NCBI GenBank assembly: GCA_963842525.1 | Contig: CAWJGT010000003.1 | Span: 544,001 to 608,000 of the forward strand | Source of the DNA: an uncultured Holophagales bacterium | GTDB lineage: Bacteria > Acidobacteriota > Thermoanaerobaculia > Multivoradales > UBA5704 | Direction: 5' to 3' | DNA: 64,000 nucleotides | The notes under the pieces: generated by a model | Told to the model about the DNA's origin: nothing | Databases searched by the model: none | What the model saw: the letters and a program-made list of their open reading frames with translations, nothing else | In this document: positions 6,001 to 55,200 of the stretch, one piece after another | Position numbering within the stretch: the stretch's first letter is position 1 | How the letters are laid out: every line of letters begins with the position of its first letter | Translations under genes and position numbers: made by a program

Positions 6001-8886
6001 TATGGTCCGACCGAGGCGACCGTCACTTCCACGGTCTTCCAGACGACGAGCGGCGAGGTGGACCGGCTCGCCCTCCCGGAGGTGCCGCTCGGCCGGCCGC
6101 TGCCCGGGACCGGGCTCTATCTGTTGGACGGCGGCCTCCAGCCTGTCCCGGTCGGCGTCCTCGGCGAGGTCTTTCTCGCCGGGGCAGGGGTGACGAGGGG
6201 ATACCTCCATCATCCGGGCCTGACGGCAGAGCGCTACCTGCCGGATCCATGGTCCGGGGAGCCCGGAGCGCGCGTGTACCGCGCGGGAGACCTGGCGCGC
6301 CGCCTGCCGGACGGGAGCCTTCAGTTCGCCGGGCGCCGCGATCAGCAGGTCAAGTTGCGCGGGTACCGGGTGGAGCTGGGAGAGATCGAGGCCTCCCTCG
6401 GGGCCTGCCCTGGGGTCCGGGAGAAGGTGGTGGTAGTGCGCGGAGAGGCGGCAGGAGACAGGCGCCTGGTGGCCTATGTGGTGCCGGAGCGACCGGACGA
6501 GCTGTCGGCGGAGGATCTGCTCGCCATGCTGCGGACGATGCTGCCGGCCCATATGGTCCCATCGTCCCTCGTCCTGCTCCCCCAGCTACCGCTGACGCCG
6601 AGCGGCAAGATCGACCGCAAGGCGCTGCCCGCTTTCGACGCCTCTTCGCTGCCACAGCAGCGGCAGGAGATCGGCCCGGTAAGGACGAAGCAGGAGATCG
6701 TCCCGGCACAGACGCAACTGGAGCTCGATCTCGTCCATCTCTGGGAAGAGCTGCTGGATGTGCGGCCGATCGGGATCCATGACAACTTCTTCGACCTTGG
6801 CGGTCACTCGCTCCTCACCGTGCGTCTCGTGGCCCAGATCGGGAAGAAGCTCGGCCGGCGCGTCCCCCTGGCGGTGCTCTTCGAAGGACCGACGATCAGC
6901 CACCTCGCGCGGCGGCTTGCGGCCGAGGAGGTGGCCCCGGCCTGGTCGCCGCTGGTGGCGATCCAGCCCGCGCACTCATTCTCGAAGCCGCCCCTGTTCT
7001 TCGTTCATCCCCTCGGCGGTGAGGTCCTGGCCTATTACCACCTGGCCCGGCACCTGGGCACGGACCAGCCGTTCTACGCCCTCCAGGCCGCGACGCTGCA
7101 CCACCAGGGAGGCGAGCCGCACCCCTCCATCGAGGAGATGGCGGCTCGCTATCTCGCGGAGGTGCGGAAGGTCCAGCCGCAGGGCTCCTACATGCTGGGA
7201 GGCTCCTCGTTCGGTGGTCTGGTCGCCTTCGAGATGGCCCAGCAGCTCCGCGGGCAAGGAGAGAAGGTTGCCCTTCTCGCCATGCTCGATACCCCGGTTC
7301 CGGTGAACGAGCCCGAGCTCTTCGACCTCGACTCCGCAGCCCTCATCCCCGCGCTGCTGCGCCAGCAGGCTCGGGGCCACGGCCGAGAGCTCCGCCTGAC
7401 CCCCAACGAGCTGCGAGGCCTTCTCCTGGAAGAGCAGGTCGATCTGGCTCTGGGGAGGGCGAAGGAAGCTGGAATCCTTGGCGGGGAGATCGACGCGGCT
7501 CTGCTGCACCGCTTCATCCGGGGCTACGAGCCGAGGATGCGGGCGATGCAACGCTACCGGGCCCGCCCCTATCCGGGCTCGATCGACCTGTTCCGTCCCC
7601 ATGAGTTGGACCCCGAGGAGCTGAGACACGCTTCCGCCGAGCGGCGGAAGCGGCTCGCGGACCCGGCCCTCGGCTGGGGTGCGTTCGCCGCCGGGGGGGT
7701 GGAGGTCTGCTACGTCCCCGGCCAGCACGAGACCATGACCGCCGAGCCTCACGTTCGCGAGCTCGCCAAGGCCCTGAAATCCCGCATCGGGCAGGTTGCC
7801 GAGGCCGAGGCCGCAGCCCCGAGGCTCTCTTTGACAGAGCAGAGGCGCAGGGGATCGACCCGCAGCTCGAGTCCTGAGGGGCTTAACAGCATCAAGAAGA
7901 TCGGAATGATCAACTGCTTTTTTGGCGCATGGCCGGGGTGGGCTGATCTGTTCATCGAAAGCTGTCGGTTCAATCCTACAGTCGATTTCTTTCTGGTCAG
8001 CGATTGTGCAGCCCCCCGGTGGGGAATTCCCCCCAACGTCAAGATCATCGACCTCGATCTGCAACAGTTCAGCAGGCGCGCGTCGGAGAGGCTGGGCCTG
8101 GAGATCCATCTCTCCAAGCCTTATAAGTTGAACGATTTCAAGCCATTCTGGGGAGTCATCTTCGAAGAGTACATCAAGGATTACGACTTCTGGGGATTCT
8201 GCGACCTGGACATCATCTTCGGAGACATTCGTGCATTCATGACCGACGAGCTCCTGGACAAGTACGACGTCATCGCGAGCCGGCGGGAGTTCATCACCGG
8301 ACACTTCCTGCTCTTCAGGAATACCGATGAGATCAGGCATCTGTATAAGAGGAGCTCGGACTGGCAGTGGGTCGCCACGAGCGAAGAGTTCTTGGTCTTT
8401 GAGGAATGCGGAATAGGACTTCATCCCAGACTCCTCCAAGGGGCCAGCTTTTCTGACCTGGCACCCGAGGGAGTCGTCGACAGCATGATGCACGTTCTCG
8501 CGCGTTCTCCTGAAATCCGTGTCCACCGGGAAACGATCTGCGGTGAACAGTTGTTCATATTAATCGGTGGCAATGCGGACAAAGCCCTGAAGATCCGTTG
8601 GGAGAGTGGAAAGATCTTTGATCTCATGGCCGATAAGGAGCTCATATACTTCCACTTCCTGTACCTGAAGTCTGAGGGCAGGCTCTTCCTTCCGCAATGG
8701 GAGACTATGCCTCCTGTCTTTCTGCTGACCCGGCGGGGGTTTTTTTGGGTAGGTCAACAAAAGCTGGGGCAGCGCCTCGAAAGCTCTTTCGATCGTGCTC
8801 TCTACTTTCTCCGGCGGTCTCTCCCGCTTGCGCCGAAACTTCTCAAGCGGCGGTTCTACAGGATCCTTGGAGGATTGAAGAAATGA
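2..8886 (+). CDS. Hybrid NRPS-PKS, 5'-partial: A(C-term)-T-KS-AT-(KR remnant)-ACP-C-A-T-TE-DUF6625-like; two apparent +1 frameshifts (~4243, ~4998)
   Basis: ORFs 8..5056, 4302..5066 and 5002..8886 join into one continuous domain series. Motifs: NGKLDR, GGHSL (272), KS TACSTS/HGT/GHLD, AT GHSVG and HAFH, ACP GGHSL (3557), [36 protein letters not shown]. Stop TGA at 8884-8886. Confidence 0.9.
476..3010 (+). other. KS-AT didomain, malonyl-type AT
   Basis: [13 protein letters not shown] start; catalytic Cys in VQTACSTS (~980-991); EAHGTAT; KTNLGHLD; AT GHSVG (2324-2338) and HAFHS. Confidence 0.9.
3746..6920 (+). other. NRPS module C-A-T; A code read as DAVDMGSVTK, substrate uncertain
   Basis: [19 protein letters not shown]; A segments [31 protein letters not shown]; [11 protein letters not shown]. 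Confidence 0.85.
6990..7790 (+). other. Type I thioesterase domain
   Basis: [10 protein letters not shown], nucleophile motif GSSFGG, LDT, and C-terminal GQHETM His. Confidence 0.9.
7891..8886 (+). other. DUF6625-like domain (DxD-containing, possibly glycosyltransferase-like), in frame after the TE
   Basis: [61 protein letters not shown] match the pattern I recognise for DUF6625 proteins of polysaccharide loci. Recognition by eye; needs an HMM check. Confidence 0.7.
8869..8873 (+). promoter_or_regulatory. Shine-Dalgarno site for the permease
   Basis: GGAGG 9 nt upstream of ATG 8883, which overlaps the upstream stop (ATGA, 8883-8886). Confidence 0.7.
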
Positions 8887-11297
8887 GAGATTTGCTGCAA
8901 GACGCCCGCTACGGATTGCGCAGGCTGTGGCAAGCTCCGGGGTTTACCGGGGCCGTGATGCTGGTGCTGGCTCTCGGCATTGGCGCCACGACGGCGATCT
9001 TCAGCGTGCTCGATGCCGCCCTGCTGCGGCCGCTGCCCTACCCCGAGCCCGAGCGACTGGTCGCGGTCTACGACCTGCAAGGGCAGGAGGAGGCGCCGGC
9101 CTCGTCCGCCGAATACCTCGACTGGAAGCGGGACACGGAGGTCTTCAGCGACTTCGGCGCGTACTTCATGATAGCGCTTGCGCTGACCGGTGAGGGTGAG
9201 CCGGAGATGGTCCGGGTCGTGCGGATGTCGGCCAGCGTGCCGCGGATGCTGGGCGCCCTGCCGCGTGTCGGGCGCGCGTTTGCGCCGGGCGAGGATGCGC
9301 TGGAGGCCGAGCGCGTCGTGATGTTGAGCGAAGCGCTGTGGCGGCGCCGCTTCGACGGCGACCAGAAGATCGTCGGCCGTGCCGTCACACTGGGAGATGA
9401 ACCGTACACGGTGATCGGCATCATCCCCCCAGGCCGGCGTTCGACCGTTCCGGCCGACCTGGCGGCGGCGCAGGAGATCGATGTATGGATTCCCCTGCGG
9501 CTCGAGCCGGAACGCATGCCGCGTAACCTGCACTTCATCAACGTGGTCGGACGGCTGCGCCCCGGGCTCGCCCTCGCGCAAGCCGAGGAGCGCATTGCGG
9601 CGTTGGCTCACCGGCTCCGGGAGAGCAAGGTGACGGACCATGGTATCCGCCTCGTCCGGCTGGAACGTATCGTGATCGGCGACGCGCGGCCGCTCCTCGC
9701 CGCCCTGGCTGGCGCGGTGGGCATGGTGCTCCTCATTGCCTGTACAAACGTGGCGAACCTGCTGCTGGCGCGCTCGGCGGTACGGCGGCGCGAGATCGCC
9801 ATCCGCGCGGCGCTCGGCGCGGCGCGCGGCCGCCTCGTACGGCAGCTCATGGTCGAGAGCCTTCTCCTGGCGTTGCTCGGCGGCGGTGCCAGCGTGCTCG
9901 TCGCATGGGGCGGCGTGGCCGCCCTCCGCAGGCTTGGCCCCGCCGGTATGCCGCGGCTCGCCGAGGCCGCGGTGGATGCGCGCATGCTGGGTTTCGCGCT
10001 GCTCCTTGCGCTGGTCACCGGCCTGCTCTTCGGCCTGCTCCCCGCGTGGCGCGCCTCGCGCGCCGACCTCGCCGAGGTGATGAAGACCGGCGCGCCGGGC
10101 GCCAGCGGAGGCCTCGCTCGCAGCCGTCTGCGCGGCGCGCTCATCGTGGCCGAGGTGGCGCTCTCGTTCGCTTTGCTCATCGGCGCCGGCCTGATGATCC
10201 GCAGCTTCGGCCGGCTGCTCGCGGTCGACAAGGGCTTCAACGCTGAGCGCGTGCTCAGCACCTCGGTCTCCTTGCCGTTCACCCGCTATCCCGAGCCGTA
10301 CCAGCAGGCCGCGTTCTTCCGCGAGCTCTGCGAGCGCGTAGCGGCGCTTCCGGGAGTCCAGTCTGCGGCCTTTGCCAGCAGCGTGCCCCTGGCGGGAGAT
10401 GTCAGCGGCGTAGTCCTCATCGAGGGCCGCACCTTTCCGCCGGACGCGCGACCGGTCGCCCAGAAGCGGATCGCCTCGCCGGGCTACTTCGCAGCGCTGC
10501 GCACACCGGTCCTCTCCGGGCGCGTCTTCGAGGACAAGGACGCCGCCGGCGCGCCGCCGGTGGTCGTCATCAACCAGGCCTTCGCGCGACGCTACTTCCC
10601 CGGCGAGAGCCCGCTCGGCAAGCGGGTCGATTTCGCGTGGGAGACCACCGGGATGGGGATGCAGGAGATCGTCGGCGTGGTCGCGGATATGCGGGAGCTG
10701 GCGCTCCACGAGCCGGCCGAGCCGACGATCTACATCCCGCAGGCGCAACGCCCGTCGAGTTGGGGCTATCTCATTGTGCGTACGACCCGAGATCCCATGG
10801 GCATGGTCTCCGCACTGCGCCGGGCGGTGACCTCGCTCGATCGCAACCTGCCGATCGCCCAGGTGCGCACGTTGGAGGAGCTGGTGGCCCAGGGGCTCGC
10901 GGAGCGCCGGCTCGCGATGTCCCTTTTCGGCGTCTTTTCCGCATTGTCGCTGGTGCTCGCCGCTTTAGGTCTTTATGCCGTCATCAGCTACATGGTGATG
11001 CAACGGCGGCAGGAGATTGGCATCCGGATGGCGCTCGGCGCGCGCACCGAGCACGTTCTGCGCGGGGTGCTGGGCCAGGGGCTGGCGCTGATCGCGGCCG
11101 GTGCGGCCCTCGGCGCGCTCGCCGCCCTATGGCTCGGGCGATTCCTCTCTGGGCTCATCTTCGGCGTCGGCACCACCGACCCCGCCACCTTCGCGGGTGT
11201 AGCGCTCCTGCTCGTGGCGACCGCTCTCCTGGCGAGCCTGGTGCCCGCGCTGCGCGCCGCCCGCCTCGATCCGGCGAGCGTGTTGCGTAGCGAGTAG
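8883..11297 (+). CDS. ADOP-family (Acidobacterial duplicated orphan permease) MacB/FtsX-type ABC permease, ~804 aa
   Basis: N-terminus [19 protein letters not shown]...[15 protein letters not shown]; [15 protein letters not shown]...[13 protein letters not shown]; second half [14 protein letters not shown]; C-terminus [17 protein letters not shown]. No ATPase domain. Confidence 0.92.
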
Positions 11298-11330
11298 ACC
11301 CCTATCCGCGCGTGCGCCCTGATGGCTTCG

Positions 11331-11678
11331 TGACTCGCGGTCCCGGCGATTGGGGCCGCGGTCCGCGCGACCGGGACCGCGAAACCGCACTGTGGACCTG
11401 CGGTCCCTGCCAAGCGGACCTCGGGTCCTACCAGATGACCTGATGCCCTGCGTTGCGGGCCGCGGTCCCTCTGACAGGGACCCCCGGTCCGCACAGGAGG
11501 ACCGCGGTCCCTCTCACACGGACCGGAAGTCCAGGGCCGCGTTTTTCAAAACCGCTGATGGGGACCGCGGCCCGCGCGACTGGGGCCTTCGGTCCGCGCC
11601 GGGGGCTCGCGAGCCCACAGGCTCCGGCATCGCTGGCTTCGACACGGCGCGCGGTCCGGTCTCTGGAGCGGCGGCTCT
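11331..11678. repeat. Intergenic array of ~16-17 short palindromes (consensus GGACC-N2-3-GGTCC) with a 21-bp period
   Basis: Units start at 11332, 11353, 11374, 11394, 11416, 11436, 11457, 11478, 11499, 11520, 11541, 11562, 11583, 11604, ~11624, 11646 and ~11666, with variable ~8-9 nt spacers. Confidence 0.85.
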
Positions 11679-11682
11679 GTTT

Positions 11683-46225
<34,543 letters not shown>

Positions 46226-46245
46226 CGCTGCTCTCCGTTCGCGGG

Positions 46246-49200
46246 TCAAGAGACCGGCTGATCCACCAGGACCCGGCGGCGCGCGCGGGCCAGGGAGAGG
46301 CTCCGCCTCTCCTGGTCCCGCTGCTCTTCGTCCCGCGCCTCCAGCCGGGCGAGCTCCGCTTCGATCTCGCGCAGGTGGGCGTCCGGGCGCTCGACCACGC
46401 TCCGCAGGACGAGCGCAAAGCCGTCCAGGAAGCGGGCGATGGTCGCGGCCTCGAACAGGTCGGTGCTGTATTCCGCCTGGCCCATGATGCCGGCCCCGGT
46501 CTCCATCAGGTTGAGCAGCAGGTCGAATTTCGCGGTCTGCCGGGGTACGTCGAGGGGAGCGACCGAGAGGCCCCGCAGGCTCTGCGCCGCGAACGGGACG
46601 TTCTGGAGCACGAGCTTGAGCTGGAACAGGGGCGTGCGGCTCAGGTCGCGCTCCGGGCTCAGCATTTCCACGAGCCGGTCGAAGGGGGCGTCCTGGTGCA
46701 TGTAGGCTTCCAGGGTATCCCGGCGCACCTGCCGCAGGATTTCGCGGAACGTGGGGTCTCCCGCAAGGTCGACGCTCAGCACGAGCTGGTTGACGAAGAG
46801 CCCGATGAGGCCTTCGAGCTCCGCGTGCCGGCGGTTCGCGATGTCCGTTCCGAGGACCAGCCGGTCGCTTTCTGCATGCCGGTGCACGAGGACGGCAAAA
46901 GCGGCCAGGAGGGACATGAAGAGCGTCGCATCCTCCTGCCGCCCCAGGATCCGCAGGGCCTCCGTCAAGCCGCCTGCGATGGCCACGGGCACGGCGGCGC
47001 CCAGACCGCTGCGGACGGGCGGTCTGGGACGGTCGGCCCGGAGCTCCGCCGGAGCGAGCCCGGCGAGCCGCGCCCGCCAGTACTCGAGCTGGCCGTCCAG
47101 GGGCTCGCCCTGCAGCCAGCGCCGCTGCCAGACGGCGAAGTCGGCGTACTGGACCGGCAGCTCCGGCAACGGCGAGGGCCTGCCTTCGGCAAACGCCGCG
47201 TAGAGCGCCGTGACCTCGCGGACCAGGATTCCCATGGACCAGCCGTCGCCGGCGATGTGATGCAGGGTCAGGGCGACGACGTGCTCCATCTGTCCCCCTG
47301 TGGCGGCCAGCCGCAGCAGGAGGCCGCGCAGCAGCGGACCGCGCGCGAGATCGAACGGCCGGCCGGCTTCTTCACCGGCCAGCGCGAGGGCCGTCGCTGC
47401 GCGCGTTCTCTCCGGCAGCCCCGACAGGTCGACCACCGCGAGCCCGAAATCTGCCGCCGGTTGGATCACCTGCACCGGCGAGCCCTTCGGGGCCGCGAAG
47501 ACCGTGCGCAGTGCCTCATGGCGCCGGACGACCTCGCCGAGGCAGCACGCCAGCACCTCGGGGCGGAGCGGCCCTTCGATGCGTAGCGCCACTGGGATGT
47601 TGTAGAGCGGGCTTCCCGGTTCGAGCTGATCGATGAGCCAGAGGCGCTGCTGCGCGAACGACAGCGGCAGGGGCTCCTCCCGCGGTGTGTGAGCGATGGG
47701 AGCGCCAGGCATCAGAGGCGGTGTAAGCCTGTCCCCGCCGGCCTGGAGCACAGCCTCCACCCGGGCGGCGAGGTCCGCCAGCCGTGGAGCCTCGAAGAGG
47801 TCGCGCAGCGGCATCTCGACGTCGAAGGCGCTCCGCAGGCGCGACATCACCCGCGTCGCCAGCAGCGAGTGGCCGCCCAGGTCGAAGAAATGTTCGGCCG
47901 GCCCGACCCGTTCGAGACCGAGAAGCTCGGACCAGATGCCGGCGAGCACCTCTTCGACCGGCGTGCGCGGCGCCAGAGGGCTCTCTTCGGGGCGTTGCCT
48001 CTCCGAGGCCGGCAGGGCCTTGCGGTCCACCTTGCCGTTCGGCGTGAGGGGGAAGACGGCAAGGACCACAAGCACGGTGGGGACCATGTAGTCCGGGAGG
48101 CGCTCGCGCAGGGCCTGGCGCAAGGTTCCAGCGGTGGCATCGCCGGTCACATAGGCGACCAGCCTGCCTTCCCGGACTACCACTACGGCCTCGTGGACTC
48201 CAGTCTGCGCGGCCAGCGCCGCCTCGATCTCTCCCAGCTCGATGCGGAAGCCGCGGATCTTCACCTGGTGGTCGATGCGGCCGAGGACCTCCATCCCACC
48301 CGGAAGGTGGCGGGCCAGGTCTCCCGTCCGGTAGAGGCGGCCTCCCGGCTCATCTCTCTCCGTCGCGAAGGGGTCCGGCAGGAAGCGCTCGGCAGTCAGG
48401 TCCGGCCGGCCCAGGTAGCCCCGCGCCACGCCGGTGCCGCCGATCCAGAGCTCGCCGGGCACTCCGAGGGGCACGGCCTGCAGCTCCCGGTCGAGAAGAT
48501 GGATCCGGGTGTTGGCAATGGGCCGGCCGATCGAGACCGACCCGGCCTCGTCCGGCCCGATGCGCGCGGCGGCCGACCAGACGGTGGTCTCGGTGGGACC
48601 GTAGAGGTTCCACAGCTCGCGGGTCTGCCGGGCCAGGGACGTGGCCAGCTCGCGCGGGAGTGCCTCACCGCCGCAGAGCGCGAGGAGGGAGGGATCGCCG
48701 GTCCAACCCGCATCGAGGAGCATCCGCCACGTCGCCGGGGTTGCCTGCAGCACACCGGCCCCCGATGCATGGAGCCGCGCCGCGAGGAGCACGCCGTCCG
48801 CGGCCTCGGCCCGGCTGGCCACCTCGACACAGCCGCCGGTGGTCAAGGGGAGGAAGATCTCCAGCGCCGCGATGTCGAAGGCGAGCGAGGTGACGGCGAG
48901 CAGCCGCTCCCCGGCGGAGAAGCCTGGGGCTCGTCGCATCGACGCGAGGAAATTGACCAGGGCCTGGTGAGGGACTCCCACGCCTTTGGGACGGCCTGTC
49001 GAGCCCGAGGTGTAGAGGACATAGGCAAGCTGGCGGTCGTCGCAGGGGACCGGCTCGCCGCGGTCCCGATCGACCGGGGTGGTCGAAGGGTCGCCGACCG
49101 CCTTGCCGTCCAGGCAGAGAACCGCCCCGGGAGCCGGGGGGAGCGCGGCGAGCAGGCGCGTCTCGGTGATCAGCACCTGCGGCGCCGCGTCCTCCAGCAC

Positions 49201-52200
49201 GAGGGCCAGCCGCTTGCGAGGGTAGTCGGGGTCAAGCGGCACGTAGGCGGCCCCGGCCTTGAGCACGCCGAGGAGGGCCGCGACCAGATCGAGGGACCGC
49301 TCGAGGGCGACGCCAACGCGGCTCTCCGGACCGCAGCCCAGCCCTCGCAAGCGGCGCGCCAGCCGGTCCGCCCGGGCGTCGAGCTCGGCGTAGGAGAGGA
49401 TCTCCCCCGCGAACGTGGCGGCCGGCGCATCCGGCGTGCGCGCCGCCTGGGCTGCGAAGAGGTCGTGCACGAGGAGCCCCTCCGGCAGCCGCACCGCGGT
49501 GTCGCTCCACTCGGCGAGGAGCTGATGGCGTTCGGCCCCGGTGAGCAGCGACAGCTCCGAGGTCCGCCGCTCCGGCGCCGCCAGGGACGCGGCGAGCAGG
49601 CACTCGTAGTGGACGACCAGGCGGTCGATGGTCGCGGCGTCGAACAGGGCGGTGGCGTGCTCAACCGTGCCGCGGAGCCCGCCGTCGTGCTCCTCGAAGG
49701 CGAGCGTGAGATCGACTTTCGCCGTGGTCCCGGTCCCGCCGGCCGGCCGCAGGCGCAGGCCCTGGATCTCCAGGGCCGCGACGGGGGCGTTCTGCAGGAT
49801 GAGCATCGCCTGGAACAAGGGGGCGTAGGCGAGGCTTCGCTCCGCCGTGAGGTCCTGGACCAGCCGTTCGAACGGCACGTCCTGGTGCAGATGGGCGGCG
49901 AGCGCGGTCTCGCGGACCCGGCCGAGCAACTCCCGGAACGAGGGCTGATCCGTGAGATCGCCGCGCAGCACCAGCGTGTTGAGGAAAAATCCGATCAATC
50001 CCTCGATCTCCACCCGGTTGCGTCCCGCGACCGGAGTTCCGACCGCGAGGTCCTGCTGCCCGCTGTAGCGGGCCAGCAGAGCCTGGAAGCCGGCCAGGAG
50101 TACCATGAAGAGCGTCGCTCCCTCGCGCCGGCTCAGTGCTTGCGCCTGCCGGGTGAGCTCGGCCGGCAGCCGCACGGGCCGGGTGGCGCCGCGGGTGCTC
50201 TGCACCGCGGGCCGGGGACGGTCGGTGGGGAGCGAGAGGAGGGACGGCAGCCCCGCGAGCTGGCGGCGCCAGAAGGAGATCTCGCTCTCCAGGGCTTCGC
50301 CGTGCAGCCAGGAGCGCTGCCAGACCGCGTAGTCCGCGTACTGCACCGGCAGCTCCGTCAGGGGCGAGGGCCTGCCTTCCGCGAACGCCGCGTAGAGGGT
50401 CCCTACCTCGCGGACCAGGATGCCGATCGACCAGCCGTCGCTGGCGATGTGGTGCATGGTCAACGCGGCGACGTGGTCCTCGCCGTCCAGCCGCAGCAGC
50501 ACGCCGCGCAGCAGGGGGCCGCGCGCCAGGTCGAACGGACGGGCGGCCTCTTCGCGGGCCAGAGCGAGAGCCGTGGCCTCATGGCGCCTCTCCGGCAGCC
50601 CCGAGAGGTCGACCACGGGCAGCCTGAAAAGGGCCGGTGGTTGGATCACCTGCACCGGCGAGCCCTCGAAGGTGGCGAAGACCGTGCGCAACGCCTCATG
50701 GCGCCGGACGATCTCGCCGAGGCAGCGCGCCAGCACCGCGGCGGCCAGCGGCCCTTCGACGCGCAGCGCCACCGGGATGCTGTAGAGCGGGCTGCCCGGC
50801 TCGAGCTGATCGATAAACCATAGGCGTTGCTGCGCGAACGAGAGAGGCAGCGATCCCTCCCGCGATGTTCGGGCGATCGTGACAAGAGGTGGGGTAGGCC
50901 GGTCAGCGCCGGCCCGGAGCGCCGCCTCGACCCGCGAGGCGAGGTGCGCCAGGGCCGGGGCCTCGAAGAGGTCGCGCAGCGGCATCTCGACACCGAAGGC
51001 GCTGCGCAGGCGCGAGACCACCTGAGTCGCCAGCAGCGAATGGCCGCCCAGGTCGAAGAAGTGGTCGTTCGTCCCAACCCGTTCGACACCGAGGAGCTCG
51101 GCCCAGATGCCGGCGAGCACCTCCTCGACCTGAGTCCGCGGCGCGCGATAGCTCTCCTCGGCGCTCTGCCAATCCGGGGCTGGCAGGGCCTTGCGGTCCA
51201 CCTTGCGGTTGGGGCTGAGGGGGAGGACGTCAAGGACAACAACGACGGCAGGGACCATGTAGTCCGGGAGGCGATCGCGCAAGGCTTGGCGCAGGCTCTC
51301 GGCGGCGGCGTCGCCCACCACATAGGCCACCAGCCGCCGGTCGCCAGATACATCCTCCCGCACAACCACGACCGCCTCACGGACACCTGCGAGGCCGAGC
51401 AGCGCTTCCTCGACCTCTCGCGGCTCGATACGGAAGCCGCGGATCTTGACCTGGTCGTCGAAACGGCCCTGGTACTCCAGGTCCCCCCGAGGCGAGAGCC
51501 GTACCTTGTCGCCCGTCCGGTAGAGGCGGCCTCCCGGCACGCGGCCGAACGGGTCCGGGACGAACCTCTCGGCCGTGAGGTCGGGCCGCTCCAGGTAGCC
51601 GCGAGCCAGGCAGGCACCACCGATGTAGAGATCCCCGGCCACACCGAGCCGGGCCGGCACCAGGCCGGGCTCGACGACGTAGGTCGTGGCATTCCAGACA
51701 GGCCGGCCGATGGATGGATAGACCGCCCAATCCTCCGGGTCGGGGCTCAGCGTGAAGGCGGTGGCCACGTGCGTCTCGGACGGGCCGTAGTGGTTGTGGA
51801 AGGCGCACTCCGGAAGGCGCCGGAGCAGCGCCGTCATGGCCCGGTTCGTCTGCAGCCGCTCGCCGGTCGTGGTGATCTCCCGCAGAGGTGGAAGCTCCTG
51901 GCGGTCGGCAAAGACCTCCGCGAGCTGCTGCAGGACGACCACCGGGAAGATCGCCTTCTCGATCCTCTGCTCCACGAGCAGCTCCGCCAGCGCCGGCATG
52001 TCGCGGCGCAGCTCTTCCGGCACCACGGCCAGGGTTCCTCCGGAGCCCCAGCAGGCGAACATCTCGTAGAAGCTGACGTCGAAGCTCAGCGAGGCGAACT
52101 GCAGGGTCTGTGCTCGCCCCAGACACGCCGCCAGATGCCAGTCGATCAGGTTGCGCAGAGCCCCATGGGGGAGGGCCACTCCCTTGGGCCGGCCGGTCGA

Positions 52201-55200
52201 GCCCGAGGTGAAGATCACATAGGCCAGGCTCGCCGGGGACGGCTCGCCGGGTGGCGTCAGCGCCCCAGCATCCGTGTCCGGCTCGTCGTCGCCGTCGACC
52301 AGGACCACCTCGGCGCTTCCGGCCGGCAGACGGTCGCGCAAATGACATTGGGTCAGCAGCACCGGAGAGCGGGTGTCGTCAAGCATGAAGGCCAGCCGCT
52401 GCTCGGGGTAGCCTGGGTCGAGGGGCACATAGGCGCCGCCGGCCTGGAGGATACCGAGCACGCCCACAACCATGTCCAGGGAGCGCTCGACCATCAGGCC
52501 GACCAGGACGTCCGGGCCGACGCCGAGGCGGCGCAGGTGTTCGGCAAGGCGGCCGGCCCGGGCGCTCAGCTCGGCATAGGTCAGCGCCGCCGCCCCGCAG
52601 ACCACGGCGGCGGCCTCGGGCGTCCGGCGGGCCTGCGCCGCGAACAGCTCGTGAACGTAGCCGACGGATCCGCTCCATCCGGTGTCGTTCCAGGCCAGGC
52701 AGAGCTGGTGGTGCTCCGCCTCCGAGAGCAGCGGCAGCTCCGAGACCGGCAGGTCCGGCGCCGCCGTGGCCGCGGCGAGCAGCCGCTCCAGGCACGCGAT
52801 CAGGCGGTCGACGGTCGTGCCGTCGAACAGATCGGTGGCGTGCTCGACCGCGCCGGCCAGCCCGCCGTCGTGCTGCTCGAGCGTGAGCGTGAGATCGAAT
52901 TTCGCCAGGGTGGCAGCCAGACCCATCGGCCGCAGGTGCAGGCGCGGGATCTCCAGGATCTCGATCGGAGCGTTCTGCAGGACCAGCATCACCTGGAACA
53001 GGGGCGTATGGGCGAGGCTCCGCTCGGGCTCCAGCTCCTGGACGAGCCTCTCGAAAGGCACGTCCTGGTGCAGATAGGCGGAGAGGGCGGTCTCGCGGAC
53101 CCGGCCGAGCAGCTCCCGGAAGGTGGGCTTTCCGGCCAGATCGCTGCGCAGCACCAGCGTGTTGACGAAGAACCCGATCAGGTTTTCGATCTCCACCCGG
53201 TTGCGTCCGGCCACCGGCGTGCCCACCGCGAGGTCTTGCTGCCCGCTGGAGCGCGCGAGAAGCGCCTGGAATGCTGCCAGCAGGACCATGAAGAGCGTCG
53301 CGCCCTCGCGCCGGCTCAGGGACTCGACCTGCCGCGTGAGCCCGGCGGGAAGCCGCACGGGCCGTGACGCGCCGCGGTAGCTTTGCGTGGCGGGCCGCGG
53401 CCGGTCGGTGGGGAAGCTCCAGGAGCGGCGGCAGGTCCGCGAGTTGCCGCCGCCAGTAGGAGATCTCGCCTTCGAGCGCTTCGCCGCGCAGCCAGGAGCC
53501 TTGCCAGGTCGCGAAGTCCCCATACTGCACCGGAAGCTCGGGCAGGGGGGACGCCGCGTAGAGGGCCGTCATCTCGCGGACGAGGATGCCCATCGACCAG
53601 CCGTCGCCGGCGATGTGGTGGAGGGTTAGCGCAACGGCGTGTTCCCCCTCCGCCAGCCGCAGCAACAGGCCGCGGAGCAGCGGACCGCGGGCGAGATCGA
53701 ACGGGCGGACAGCCTCTTCGCCGGCCAGGGAAACAGCCGTCGCCTCGCGCCGGTGCTCGGGCAGCGCCGACAGGTCCACCAGAGGCAGTCCAAACGGTGT
53801 TGCCGGCCGGATCACCTGCACCGGCGAGCCCTCCGGCGCGGCGAAAACCGTGCGCAGCGCCTCGTGCCGGCGCACGGTCTCGCCGAGGCAGCGCGCCAGG
53901 ACATCGGGGCTCAGCGGGCCTTCGACGCGCAGCGCCACCGGGATGTTGTAGCGCGGGCTTCCCGGTTCGAGCTGATCGATGAGCCAGAGGCGCTGTTGGG
54001 CGAAGGACAGGGGCAGGGGCGTCTCCCTCGGTACCTGGACCAGGGGAGGAGCAGGAAGCCCCGAGCCGGAGCGTCGCGCCGCCTCGACGCGGGCGGCGAG
54101 GTCCGCCAGCGCCGGAGCCTCGAAGAGATCGCGCAGCGGCAGCTCGACGCCGAAGGCCTCCCGCAGGCGCGACACCACCTGTGTTGCCAGCAGCGAGTGG
54201 CCGCCCAGCTCGAAGAAATGGTCGCCAGCTCCCACCCACTCTAAGCCGAGCACCTCGAGCCCAGATGCCGGCGAGGACCTCCTCCACGGGCGTGCGCGGC
54301 GCCAGGAAGCTCTCCGCGGCGTGTGGCCGCTCTGGAGCCGGCAGGGCCTTGCGGTCCACCTTGCCGTTCGGTGTGAGGGGGAGGACGGCAAGGACCACAA
54401 GGACGGCAGGGACCATATAGTCCGGGGAGCTCCTCGCGCAGGGCCTGCCGTAGGGCCTCGGTGGTGGCTTCGCCGGCCACGTAGGCCACCAGCCGGCCTT
54501 CCCGGACCACTACGGCGGCCTGGCGCACACCGGGCAAGGCGGCAAGGGCTGCCTCGATCTCTCCCAACTCGATGCGGAAGCCGCGGATCTTCACCTGGTG
54601 GTCGCGCCGCCCGAGGAACTCCAAGTTGCCGTCGGGCCGGTAGCGGGCCCGGTCGCCGGTGCGGTAGAGGCGGCCGGCTCGCCACGGGTCGGGGATGAAT
54701 TTCTCCGCCGTCAGCTCCGGCTCCCGGGCATAGCCGCCGGCCAGGCAGTCGCCCCCGATGTAGAGATCGCCGGGGATGCCCACCGGGCAGGGGGAGAGCC
54801 GCGCGTCGAGCACGTGGTAGCTCGCATTCTCGATAGGTCGGCCGTACGGGATGCTCGGCCAGGCCGGATCGACCGTGCCGATGGGGAAGACGTTGGACCA
54901 GACCGTTGCCTCGGTGGCGCCGCCGAGCGAGATCACCCGGGCGCCGGGGAAGCGCTCGCGGATGCGATCGGGAAGGGTGACCGGGATCCAGTCGCCGCTC
55001 AGGAAGACGAGGCGCAGGGCCGGGCGGGCCTCAGAATTCATCCCTTCCAGGAACGGCACCGTCTGCTCCAGGGCCGCCGGAGCCGAATCCCAGAACGTGA
55101 TGGGCTCCGTAGACAGCGCGTGCAGCAGACGCTCCGGATCGCGGATCTCCTCCTCGGTGGCGATGCGGATGGAGCCACCGGCCCCCAGCAGGCCGAAGAC

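Follow-up and report, generated by a model that had tools for sequence, protein, structure and literature searches.

A palindrome array phased at 21 bp in an uncultured Holophagales genome is probably one copy of a modular, non-coding, dispersed repeat family

BOX of Streptococcus pneumoniae and MIRU of the mycobacteria are dispersed intergenic minisatellites with units of about 45-100 nt that are not palindrome-based, BOX having the layout boxA-(boxB)n-boxC with a variable middle module; the STRR of cyanobacteria are heptamer tandem arrays, and the bacterial interspersed mosaic elements (BIMEs) of the BIME-2 type form tandem clusters. The subject of this analysis is an array of short palindromes at 11331-11678 of a 64,000-nt stretch of DNA (the window) on contig C3 of the genome of an uncultured Holophagales bacterium (G000; 9.95 Mb, 34 contigs, 96% complete; class Thermoanaerobaculia, Acidobacteriota), an element whose units are shorter than those of BOX and MIRU and to which neither is expected to be related in sequence. 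In Porphyromonas gingivalis, BrickBuilt, a minisatellite-MITE (miniature inverted-repeat transposable element), is composed of tandem 23-nt units with a 'leader' and a 'tail' and is present in about 19 copies, always intergenic, according to its excerpted description (PMC4596501). Repetitive extragenic palindromes (REPs) are defined as imperfect palindromes of 20-40 bp with an unpaired GTAG (or CGTC) tag at one end, and roles in supercoiling, termination and mRNA stability have been proposed for REPs and BIMEs, again in an excerpted account (PMC3733652). The site bound by SopB in sopC of the F plasmid, TGGGACC-PuPy-GGTCCCA (Pu purine, Py pyrimidine), occurs once per 43-bp tandem unit, binding needs arm positions 2, 4, 5, 6 and 7 together with the purine-pyrimidine centre, and in the excerpts of that source sopC-like arrays are described as found only on enterobacterial plasmids (PMC3177203).

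We read the array in the window as one copy of a lineage-specific, non-coding, modular and formerly mobile repeat family that occupies about 26 intergenic sites in this genome, and put the probability of this reading at roughly 0.6. Written out from 11331 at 21 letters per row, the sequence showed palindromes of the GGACC-N2-3-GGTCC type whose left arms fell in register, with starts at 11457, 11478, 11499, 11520, 11541, 11562, 11583 and 11604 spaced by exactly 21; a preliminary description of this DNA had begun this exact run at 11436, which holds, though the row there is a poor unit (TGACC/TGCCC). In 14 of the 17 rows a 5-N2-3-5 palindrome lay no more than a few bases off the phase and kept four or more of its five arm pairs (dinucleotide shuffles, n=1000: mean 4.95, maximum 11), and the palindromes were perfect at six places (11394, 11416, 11478, 11499, 11541 and 11604); the array first described is therefore real, and the '16-17 palindromes' credited to it a slightly generous count. 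The exact pattern GGACC-N2-3-GGTCC occurred four times in the window, always within 11394-11510, against an expectation of 0.38 (0 of 100 shuffles reached four). Base autocorrelation was 0.407, 0.448 and 0.460 at lags 21, 42 and 63 (0.300 in shuffles; z 4.4, 5.9 and 6.0), with none of 1000 shuffles attaining any of these values, so that the periodicity is significant by the comparison with shuffles that had been proposed for it; no signal was present at lag 7. Among the eight units of exactly 21 bp that start from 11436 to 11583, the spacer measures 8 nt where the gap between the arms is 3 nt, and 9 nt where that gap is 2 nt. Tandem Repeats Finder detected little of the array, two short period-21 stretches only, because the spacers differ; these spacers, which the preliminary description says all differ, are nonetheless not unrelated, since family spacers have a common degenerate S-Y-G-T-S-A-C-N-G and two 26-nt stretches of the window array, 42 bp apart, are 88% alike.

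Across its copies the element is modular and 270-410 bp long, with a head, a series of 21-nt units and a tail, which lie in the window as follows.

11318..11334, plus strand: head, with the motif GATGGCTTCGTGAC at 11321-11334 (from alignments of copies).
11335..11595, no strand assigned: body of about twelve 20-22-nt units, each GGACC-N2-3-GGTCC plus an 8-9-nt spacer (from 21-bp rows, palindrome scores, autocorrelation and the unit logo).
11535..11561, plus strand: central variant unit GCCGCGTTTTTCAAAACCGCTGATGG, with the palindrome GTTTT-TC-AAAAC at 11541-11552 (from the alignment of copies).
11596..11677, plus strand: tail of about 80 nt (conserved in 11 of 12 aligned copies).

The head sequence, GATGGCTTCGTGGAC, is clear in three copies (the window copy, C4:126k and C3:1593k, named by contig and position) and weaker in two more (C3:754k and C3:892k). 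The left arms of the body start at 11353, 11374, 11394, 11416, 11436, 11457, 11478, 11499, 11520, 11541, 11562 and 11583. The central variant unit, whose family form is GCGTTTTYCAAAACCGCTGATGG, has a fixed position in the unit order of the family, aligns with GTTTTCCAAAAC in C3:1593k and GCTTTCCGAAAC in C4:126k, and is followed by a conserved (C/G)TGA(T/C) in all nine aligned copies. The tail contains GGCTC-GC-GAGCC (11604), CCGGC-ATC-GCTGG (11624) and GCTGGCTTCGAC and ends in GGAGCGGCGGCTC (GAGC-GGCG-GCTC at 11666); homology among tails ceases past the motif CGCTGGAGCGGCNGGTCCGG, and the loci beyond the tail-bearing ones match the body only. From end to end the units follow one and the same order in C4:126k, C3:1593k and the window copy; copies that are less alike have this order in part. 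Copies are distinguished by whole-unit insertions or deletions of 21, 22 or 43 bp: internal gaps of at least 5 nt in the nine-copy alignment measured 21 nt in 12 rows, 22 in three, 20 in one and 43 in two, rows that stand for at least five separate events and not for one event each, a few gaps at the ragged 5' end excepted. Tandem units with a leader and a tail, as in a minisatellite-MITE, were thus found (head in 3-5 copies, tail in 11 of 12, indels in unit steps), and its terminal inverted repeats were not: the head matched no part of the reverse complement of the tail end, CCGGACCNGCCGCTCCAGCG, and what head and tail have in common is a direct TGGMTTCG.

Those near-consensus units whose centre is 2 nt, 72 in number, gave the logo G-GGACC-RY-GGTCC-S-Y-G-T-S-A-C-N-G, with G at position -1 in 52 of the 72 and R at position 1 plus Y at position 2 of the gap in 63. 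A 3-nt centre was present in 46 of 118 near-consensus units (39%), and about two units only of the window copy fit the full consensus. Adjacent units of the family were 21 bp apart in 11 of 21 pairs, 20 bp in five and 22 bp in five. The unit is composed of three heptads, GGACC-RY, GGTCC-SN and GTSAC-NG, each of the form G-K-N-M-C-N-N, so that 21 can be read as 3 x 7 and not only as 'two helical turns'; the argument from the helix made in the preliminary description thus has a rival, and relatives do carry plain GGWCC-NN heptamer arrays.

In the genome as a whole, exact palindromes clustered at 16 places and near-exact ones in 23 clusters, the window's being the largest (nine members). A blastn search with 11298-11683 found 22 further places, the best matches being C4:126132-126502 (81% over 371 bp) and C3:1593325-1593667 (78% over 343 bp), and an nhmmer profile built from eight copies gave 61 hits that merged into about 26 loci, many of them matched on both strands because the body is nearly dyad-symmetric. 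No gene call overlapped any of the 26 loci, all of which are intergenic; by our own crude codon-usage caller, 7 lie in convergent, 6 in divergent and 13 in co-directional gaps, which matches the 1:1:2 of random placement, and the 11 tail-bearing copies comprise 3 convergent, 3 divergent, 2 sense and 3 antisense. With about 26 copies, the array belongs to a repeat found throughout the genome and is no control region reserved for the genes beside it. An undescribed dispersed repeat family had been among the candidates of the preliminary description, and is upheld by these loci and by related arrays in a few other Thermoanaerobaculia genomes and in soil contigs; no description of this family was found in the literature, subscription journals lying outside the coverage.

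Gain and loss were compared at two loci, the window junction and two others not being syntenic in relatives. At C3:1593k the flanking genes are 42 bp apart in a genome of the same genus (G004) vs 412 bp in this genome; two further genomes of the genus (G001 and G003) have other, unrelated genes at the site and two (G002 and G005) are broken across contigs. At C8:23.6k all five same-genus genomes retain both flanks and a conserved GGATTGTA box, without the element of about 344 bp. Among informative genomes of the genus, the element was therefore absent from the orthologous site in 1 of 1 at the first locus and in 5 of 5 at the second, so that a multicopy element, intergenic at 26 of 26 sites and present or absent between close relatives, was found here as in minisatellite-MITEs. 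These two empty sites, together with the non-orthologous sites of a sister family described below, imply that the elements are gained and lost like mobile DNA. No target-site duplication was recognisable at the two occupied and empty sites, whose flanks (75-86% coding identity) are too diverged to show or exclude a short one; as neither inverted-repeat ends nor a mobilising gene were recognised, it is from presence and absence only that we infer transposition. At the position orthologous to the C8 insertion site, G004 carries a different small insertion with a long inverted repeat, CCCTCACCCCCGGCCCCTCTCCC ... GGGAGAGGGGCCGGGGGTGAGGG (C22:7850-8550; L125). The gap at the C8 site is a recurrent landing place for repeats.

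Relatives carry the same grammar in other words. A blastn search of 30 relatives with the element gave one weak 30-bp match only, and the two-unit pattern (up to 2 mismatches), counted against a reversed control, gave 14 vs 2 hits in this genome, 13 vs 1 in G013 and 103 vs 2 in G041. The high counts seen in G003, G029 and G042 came from different repeats, namely heptamers and a 21-mer that is not palindromic. G041 and G013 (genus g9, another genus of the family to which G000 belongs) have 'pure' arrays of 200-490 bp in which each GGACC-YN-GGTC(C/G) is followed by 9 nt; their spacer types alternate, and they lack a unique head or tail. Of these, 8 of 11 G041 arrays are free of overlapping gene calls. 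One G013 array lacks a counterpart at the locus syntenic to it in G041 or G047 and matches more than 15 other G041 loci at 67-80% identity, which implies that the sister family also moves. On the 5.9-kb contig C81 of G041 (L034, 1055-1783 and 2241-2629), one array lies about 450 bp from a cas1 gene, which was taken as coincidence.

Across 401 genomes of the class, most other matches were heptamer arrays, (GGWCC-NN)n, very abundant in family f20 (137 hits of the heptamer pattern in G105 and 101 in G095, none in controls). Short GGWCC-GT heptamer arrays in which A and T alternate irregularly stand directly after stop codons across the class, for example in G105 (L145, 1501-1549) and G296 (L146, 1142-1176). 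No plain heptamer array was found in G000 (0 runs of GGTCC x3 or GGACC x3). When one genome from each of 185,579 species was searched, the exact two-unit pattern occurred in 49 stretches, with long arrays only in three loci that match G041 and short 21-bp-phased arrays (4-6 units) in four other records (an unclassified bacterium, Streptomyces, Dactylosporangium and an Acidobacteriota metagenome-assembled genome). In a 21-bp-period array of an unclassified bacterium (L103, 517-684), the 12-bp palindrome changes along the array (GTGGTGCACCAC, GTGGTCAAGCAC, GTACCCGGGTCC, GGACCTTGGTCC) and the spacer is an A+T-rich 9-nt AACTTTTCT. Viral contigs gave 2 single chance-like matches only. In soil metagenome contigs the longer first pattern had 0 matches and a shorter pattern found 14 contigs, 4 of them with at least four units, and these four arrays have the same grammar yet other spacers, one with a 63-bp superperiod. 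All genomes other than G000 are draft assemblies in which repeats may be under-assembled, and kin are not independent. The genome-wide scan for spaced GGACC-N2-3-GGTCC arrays and their gene context, first proposed for this genome and its relatives, thus yielded both the family and related arrays.

A second dispersed family in this genome has tandem units of 42 bp with one GGACCSSGGTCC per unit, each unit being a GGACC(G/C)(G/C)GGTCC-GCGTGAC module like that of the 21-bp family followed by an A+T-richer 21-mer (TTCCTGTAGTCAATGCTTGAG). Its arrays lie at about six further loci.

C5:3073-3338 (= C25:5515-5780): 42-bp array.
C10:22999-23270: 42-bp array.
C11:178371-178699: 42-bp array.
C16:6189-6496: 42-bp array.
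C19:35.7-36.2 kb: 42-bp array.
C19:390.6-391.1 kb: 42-bp array.

The first of these is given twice, C5:1-7000 and C25:1845-8849 overlapping by 7 kb at 99.5% identity in opposite orientation, either as assembly redundancy or as a recent duplication.

Copies of the 21-bp family would have spread by a putative trans-acting mobilising or recombination activity; arrays may then have grown and shrunk by replication slippage or unequal exchange, in unit register, and copies would have decayed near-neutrally. The 21-bp period could reflect heptads grouped in threes as a higher-order repeat, which would be related to the GGWCC-NN heptamer arrays that are common in the class. At this locus the element most likely happens to occupy the space between two convergent genes as a passenger, and any effect on the 3' ends of the two transcripts, through hairpin-rich RNA or as a collision buffer, would be a by-product and not a function of the cluster.

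Several observations weigh against reading the array as one copy of a drifting, once mobile family. The gap types depend on crude codon-usage gene calls, and neither terminal inverted repeats nor a target-site duplication nor a mobilising gene was recognised in this genome. The closest pair of copies has 81% identity and there is no sign of current activity, so that the burst is old. In G041, adjacent spacings are exactly 21 in 67 of 68 cases and gaps are 2 nt in 131 of 136, and the GGACC-NN-GGTCC core with its 21-bp period recurs with quite different spacers in G041, G013 and the soil contigs, a recurrence that hints at a constraint which a purely neutral repeat does not need. The recurrence across lineages of the GGWCC core and, in young arrays, of the exact 21-bp period, while all else varies, is not accounted for by the reading that we favour and forms the basis of the class-wide alternative given below. 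In the nine-copy alignment, GGWCC columns (defined by one reference copy) were 0.76 alike vs 0.63 for the remaining columns, and the core excess by a consensus definition was attained by 0 of 346 circular shifts, an excess that is partly artefact because the aligner matches cores of non-orthologous units. For the three copies with clear unit orthology, by contrast, this excess was smaller and without significance: core and rest were 0.88 and 0.81 alike (Fisher p 0.22), 0.87 and 0.82 (p 0.48), and 0.93 and 0.84 (p 0.08). Units with one arm changed and the pairing broken numbered 61, and fully compensated two-sided changes five. With these counts and p values, a positive covariation term (see below) and a spacing of 21 in 11 of 21 pairs, selection on symmetry and spacing, which the preliminary description had inferred, is not shown within this genome.

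The palindromes might instead be docking sites for a dimeric helix-turn-helix protein, of ParB/SopB type or nucleoid-associated, and the arrays centromere-like, insulating or titrating platforms of double-stranded DNA, a proposal we regard as unlikely. It draws on the consensus G-GGACC-RY-GGTCC, which agrees with the SopB site at positions 2-7 and at its purine-pyrimidine centre, on conservation that lies in sequence and not in pairing, on a 2-nt centre that makes a poor hairpin loop, and on a core and period common to lineages with different spacers; sopC, as its excerpted account has it, is made of tandem 43-bp units with one inverted repeat each, and the 42-bp family of this genome likewise has one GGACCSSGGTCC per unit. 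A rigid dimer should not, however, tolerate the 3-nt centre of 46 of 118 units; few window units match the full consensus, the 61 one-arm changes have gone unrepaired, and a 12-bp match to one among thousands of known sites may be chance. Nor was an array-specific ParB found: profile matches to ParB_N numbered three in G000, one of them the second half of a split gene, and 1-7 in array-free relatives, with no correlation between ParB copy number and array carriage. A canonical parS-like site, TCTTTCACGTGGAACA (2 mismatches to consensus), is present at C25:15118, 1.5 kb upstream of the main parB, the genome holding one such site with up to 2 mismatches elsewhere and none for a control pattern. 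No par gene adjoins the arrays, and no recurrent neighbour was found among 14 proteins beside 42-bp arrays and 22 beside G041 arrays, which are unrelated housekeeping, defence and transport genes. A second parA-parB pair at C34:52.1-53.4 kb (L161, 3094-4398), conserved across the order, appears split in this genome, with the ParB_N halves and the ParB helix-turn-helix domain in different frames through frameshift or assembly error.

A class-wide form of this idea, to which we give slightly less credence, would make GGWCC the recognition unit of a putative trans-acting protein and the dispersed arrays its loading or titration platforms, centromere-like or insulating. It would accommodate the heptamer arrays of many genera, the palindromes that a few genera carry on a strict, same-face period of 21 bp, and a core matching SopB/sopC; the arrays, if this were true, could have a part in chromosome organisation or bind up the partition protein of plasmids entering the cell. 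Genome-wide, GGWCC was neither avoided nor in excess (4.32 per kb observed vs about 4.3 expected from base composition).

At the level of RNA, the array could be a shared 3' end of convergent transcripts and, like many REPs in the roles put forward for them, serve as a 3' stabiliser or as a bidirectional terminator made of several hairpins, which we think improbable. The window array lies exactly between two stop codons, its copy ends in GAGC-GGCG-GCTC and then TGTTTT, each strand folds more stably than its shuffles do (z -3.4 and -3.0; stability matched by 0 of 100), and REPs are mostly downstream of genes, by the same excerpted account (PMC3733652). These folds, however, are uninformative, since they rest on long-range pairings between interchangeable units, and the minimum free energy and centroid structures disagree on the plus strand. 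RNAalifold on nine copies (480 columns) gave -39.7 kcal/mol with a covariation term of +2.41, positive and hence penalising, so that the covariation analysis called for by the preliminary description, run with RNAalifold and pair counts, found no covariation of pairing. The 96 nine-nt spacers have ends that are anti-complementary, G..G or C..C in 65 and Watson-Crick in 29 vs 49 expected, so that there is no extension of the hairpin in its longer register, GGTCC-N9-GGACC; one position further in, pairing is at the chance level (27 observed vs 29.6 expected). Scans of 10800-12200 with promoter and terminator consensus patterns, both strands being covered for the terminator, found 0 and 0 sites, and a permissive Rfam search of 11000-12000 gave a best score of 17.8 bits against a gathering score of 40, all six listed hits having E of at least 0.39. 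The terminal hairpin and T-run are not conserved in other copies, six of the 26 loci lie in divergent gaps, and among tail-bearing copies 2 are sense vs 3 antisense. The bidirectional intrinsic terminator suggested at the outset thus finds no support, copies being as frequent in divergent as in convergent gaps.

Mobilisation as a true REP/BIME by a REP-associated tyrosine transposase (RAYT, a Y1 tyrosine transposase), acting on hairpins in single-stranded DNA, seems very improbable. The repeats are palindromic, intergenic and clustered, and the genome has about 8 full-length Y1_Tnp matches. Elements moved by Y1 transposases insert without inverted terminal repeats or target duplications, which would fit the absence of both from this element. 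Against this, none of the nine Y1_Tnp places examined, one of them interrupted by a stop codon, has a GGRCC-N2-3-GGYCC nearby (within 900 bp), an unrelated GGGCCTCGGCCC excepted, and GGWCC occurs there at its background density (1.9-6.6 per kb vs 4.3 genome-wide and 46 in the array); the units are 12-13 bp and not 20-40 bp, carry no GTAG tag, and are not depleted in divergent gaps. PF05635 (23S-rRNA intervening-sequence protein) had no match in the genome, which is 96% complete. Three Y1 (IS200-type) transposase genes stand within 4 kb at C34:527.8-531.5 kb, and a group II intron reverse transcriptase/maturase gene (C11; L117, 8572-9870) lies in a stretch of 2.1 kb, further copies of which (99.6% identity) are found at C25:512 kb and C3:360 kb.

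That the array might be a translated seven-residue-repeat protein, its codons creating the symmetry, is close to refuted. Twenty-one is seven codons, some copies are open in one frame or two (the C4 copy has 0 stops in two frames) and a G041 array reads as DSDPGPD-like repeats; open frames, however, are expected at 72% G+C, and the most protein-like reading of a single G041 array (DPGPD-like) passes through three frames. Stops interrupt all six frames of the window copy (1-4 in each), the nine-copy alignment has 35 one-base gaps between copies, and no gene call overlaps any of the 26 loci, so that the coding pattern which the preliminary description had named as its own possible undoing was looked for and not found. 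CRISPR arrays, taken as repeats of about 21-48 bp with unique spacers of similar length and usually cas genes, were likewise rejected, as the repeats here are 12-13 bp, the 8-9-bp spacers are related and the same unit order is seen in paralogous copies. The view that this is not CRISPR, a simple tandem repeat or a classical REP/BIME has accordingly stood.

The repeat family favoured here fills, in the window, the gap between two convergent genes.

8697..11297, plus strand: left neighbour, an 866-aa MacB/FtsX-type ABC transporter permease (open reading frame (ORF) list; Pfam MacB_PCD 1.9e-35, FtsX 1e-26).
11683..39399, minus strand: right neighbour, a 9,238-codon polyketide synthase/non-ribosomal peptide synthetase (PKS/NRPS) ORF (ORF list, Pfam).

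The permease stop (TAG, 11295-11297) and the PKS/NRPS stop (11683-11685, TCA on the plus strand) both lie outside the element. The flanks had been described as two convergent biosynthetic operons; they are convergent, and the left one is not obviously biosynthetic. The domain scan of the PKS/NRPS ORF covered its C-terminal 1000 aa and found KS-AT linker, acyltransferase, PP-binding and terminal reductase (NAD_binding_4) domains by Pfam. Very large megasynthase ORFs follow in series on the minus strand from 11683 to 53523, with 9,238 (11683-39399), 2,725 (38072-46249) and 2,425 (46246-53523) codons. G+C content is mostly 70-73% in the window and 63-68% between 6 and 10 kb. Contigs from four DNA sequencing runs included none that covers 11411-11692.

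A tempting misreading is removed by these results, in that an array beside a very large biosynthetic gene is not its dedicated regulatory platform. They add, from an uncultured acidobacterial class, a well-delimited repeat family with a head, a unit logo, a tail, length change in unit steps and empty sites. Families of this kind can serve as strain markers, are known to cause breaks in assemblies and errors in annotation, and are material for studying how non-coding repeats spread without an obvious transposase. A core and period that recur in several lineages, the core resembling a centromere-binding site, could also reveal a new DNA-binding system.

Set beside the described systems, the match to the SopB site is a resemblance and would not amount to a classification. 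The array and sopC are both tandem arrays with one inverted repeat per unit, of 43 bp there and of 42 and 21 bp here, and share the core GGGACC-RY-GGTCC(C) including the purine-pyrimidine centre. Here, however, the arrays are chromosomal and dispersed (about 26 loci of the 21-bp and 6 of the 42-bp family) and there, in the excerpted account, confined to one plasmid locus; no adjacent sopAB/parAB or extra ParB-family gene was found, conservation does not extend to the outer T/A, and in 39% of units the centre is 3 nt long. Like the heptamer arrays of the class, the 21-bp unit can be read as G-K-N-M-C-N-N heptads with a constant GGWCC, but in G000 two of the heptads are inverted to a palindrome and the array has a head and tail, with no plain heptamer array and no lag-7 signal. 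Proteobacterial REPs and BIMEs are, in the excerpts of their description, also short extragenic palindromes in regular alternating arrays, dispersed over the chromosome and species-specific (PMC3733652). The present units differ from them in their 12-13 bp instead of 20-40 bp and in having no GTAG tag (CGTC appears only as one degenerate-spacer variant), no repeat-flanked RAYT gene, no depletion in divergent gaps (7/13/6 convergent/co-directional/divergent) and a fixed head and tail frame. BrickBuilt, with which the comparison is by excerpted description only, differs in its phylum, its small inverted-repeat ends and its reported promoter activity, where here neither such ends nor a promoter-like site was found and the units are 12-13-bp palindromes within three heptads. 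It is like the element of this study in its short tandem units (23 nt there, 21 nt here) without unique spacers and framed by leader and tail, its copy number (about 19 and about 26), its constant intergenic position and its narrow host range. The best-supported placement of the array is therefore with the BrickBuilt, BIME and BOX class of non-coding repeats, as a variant unlike those described.

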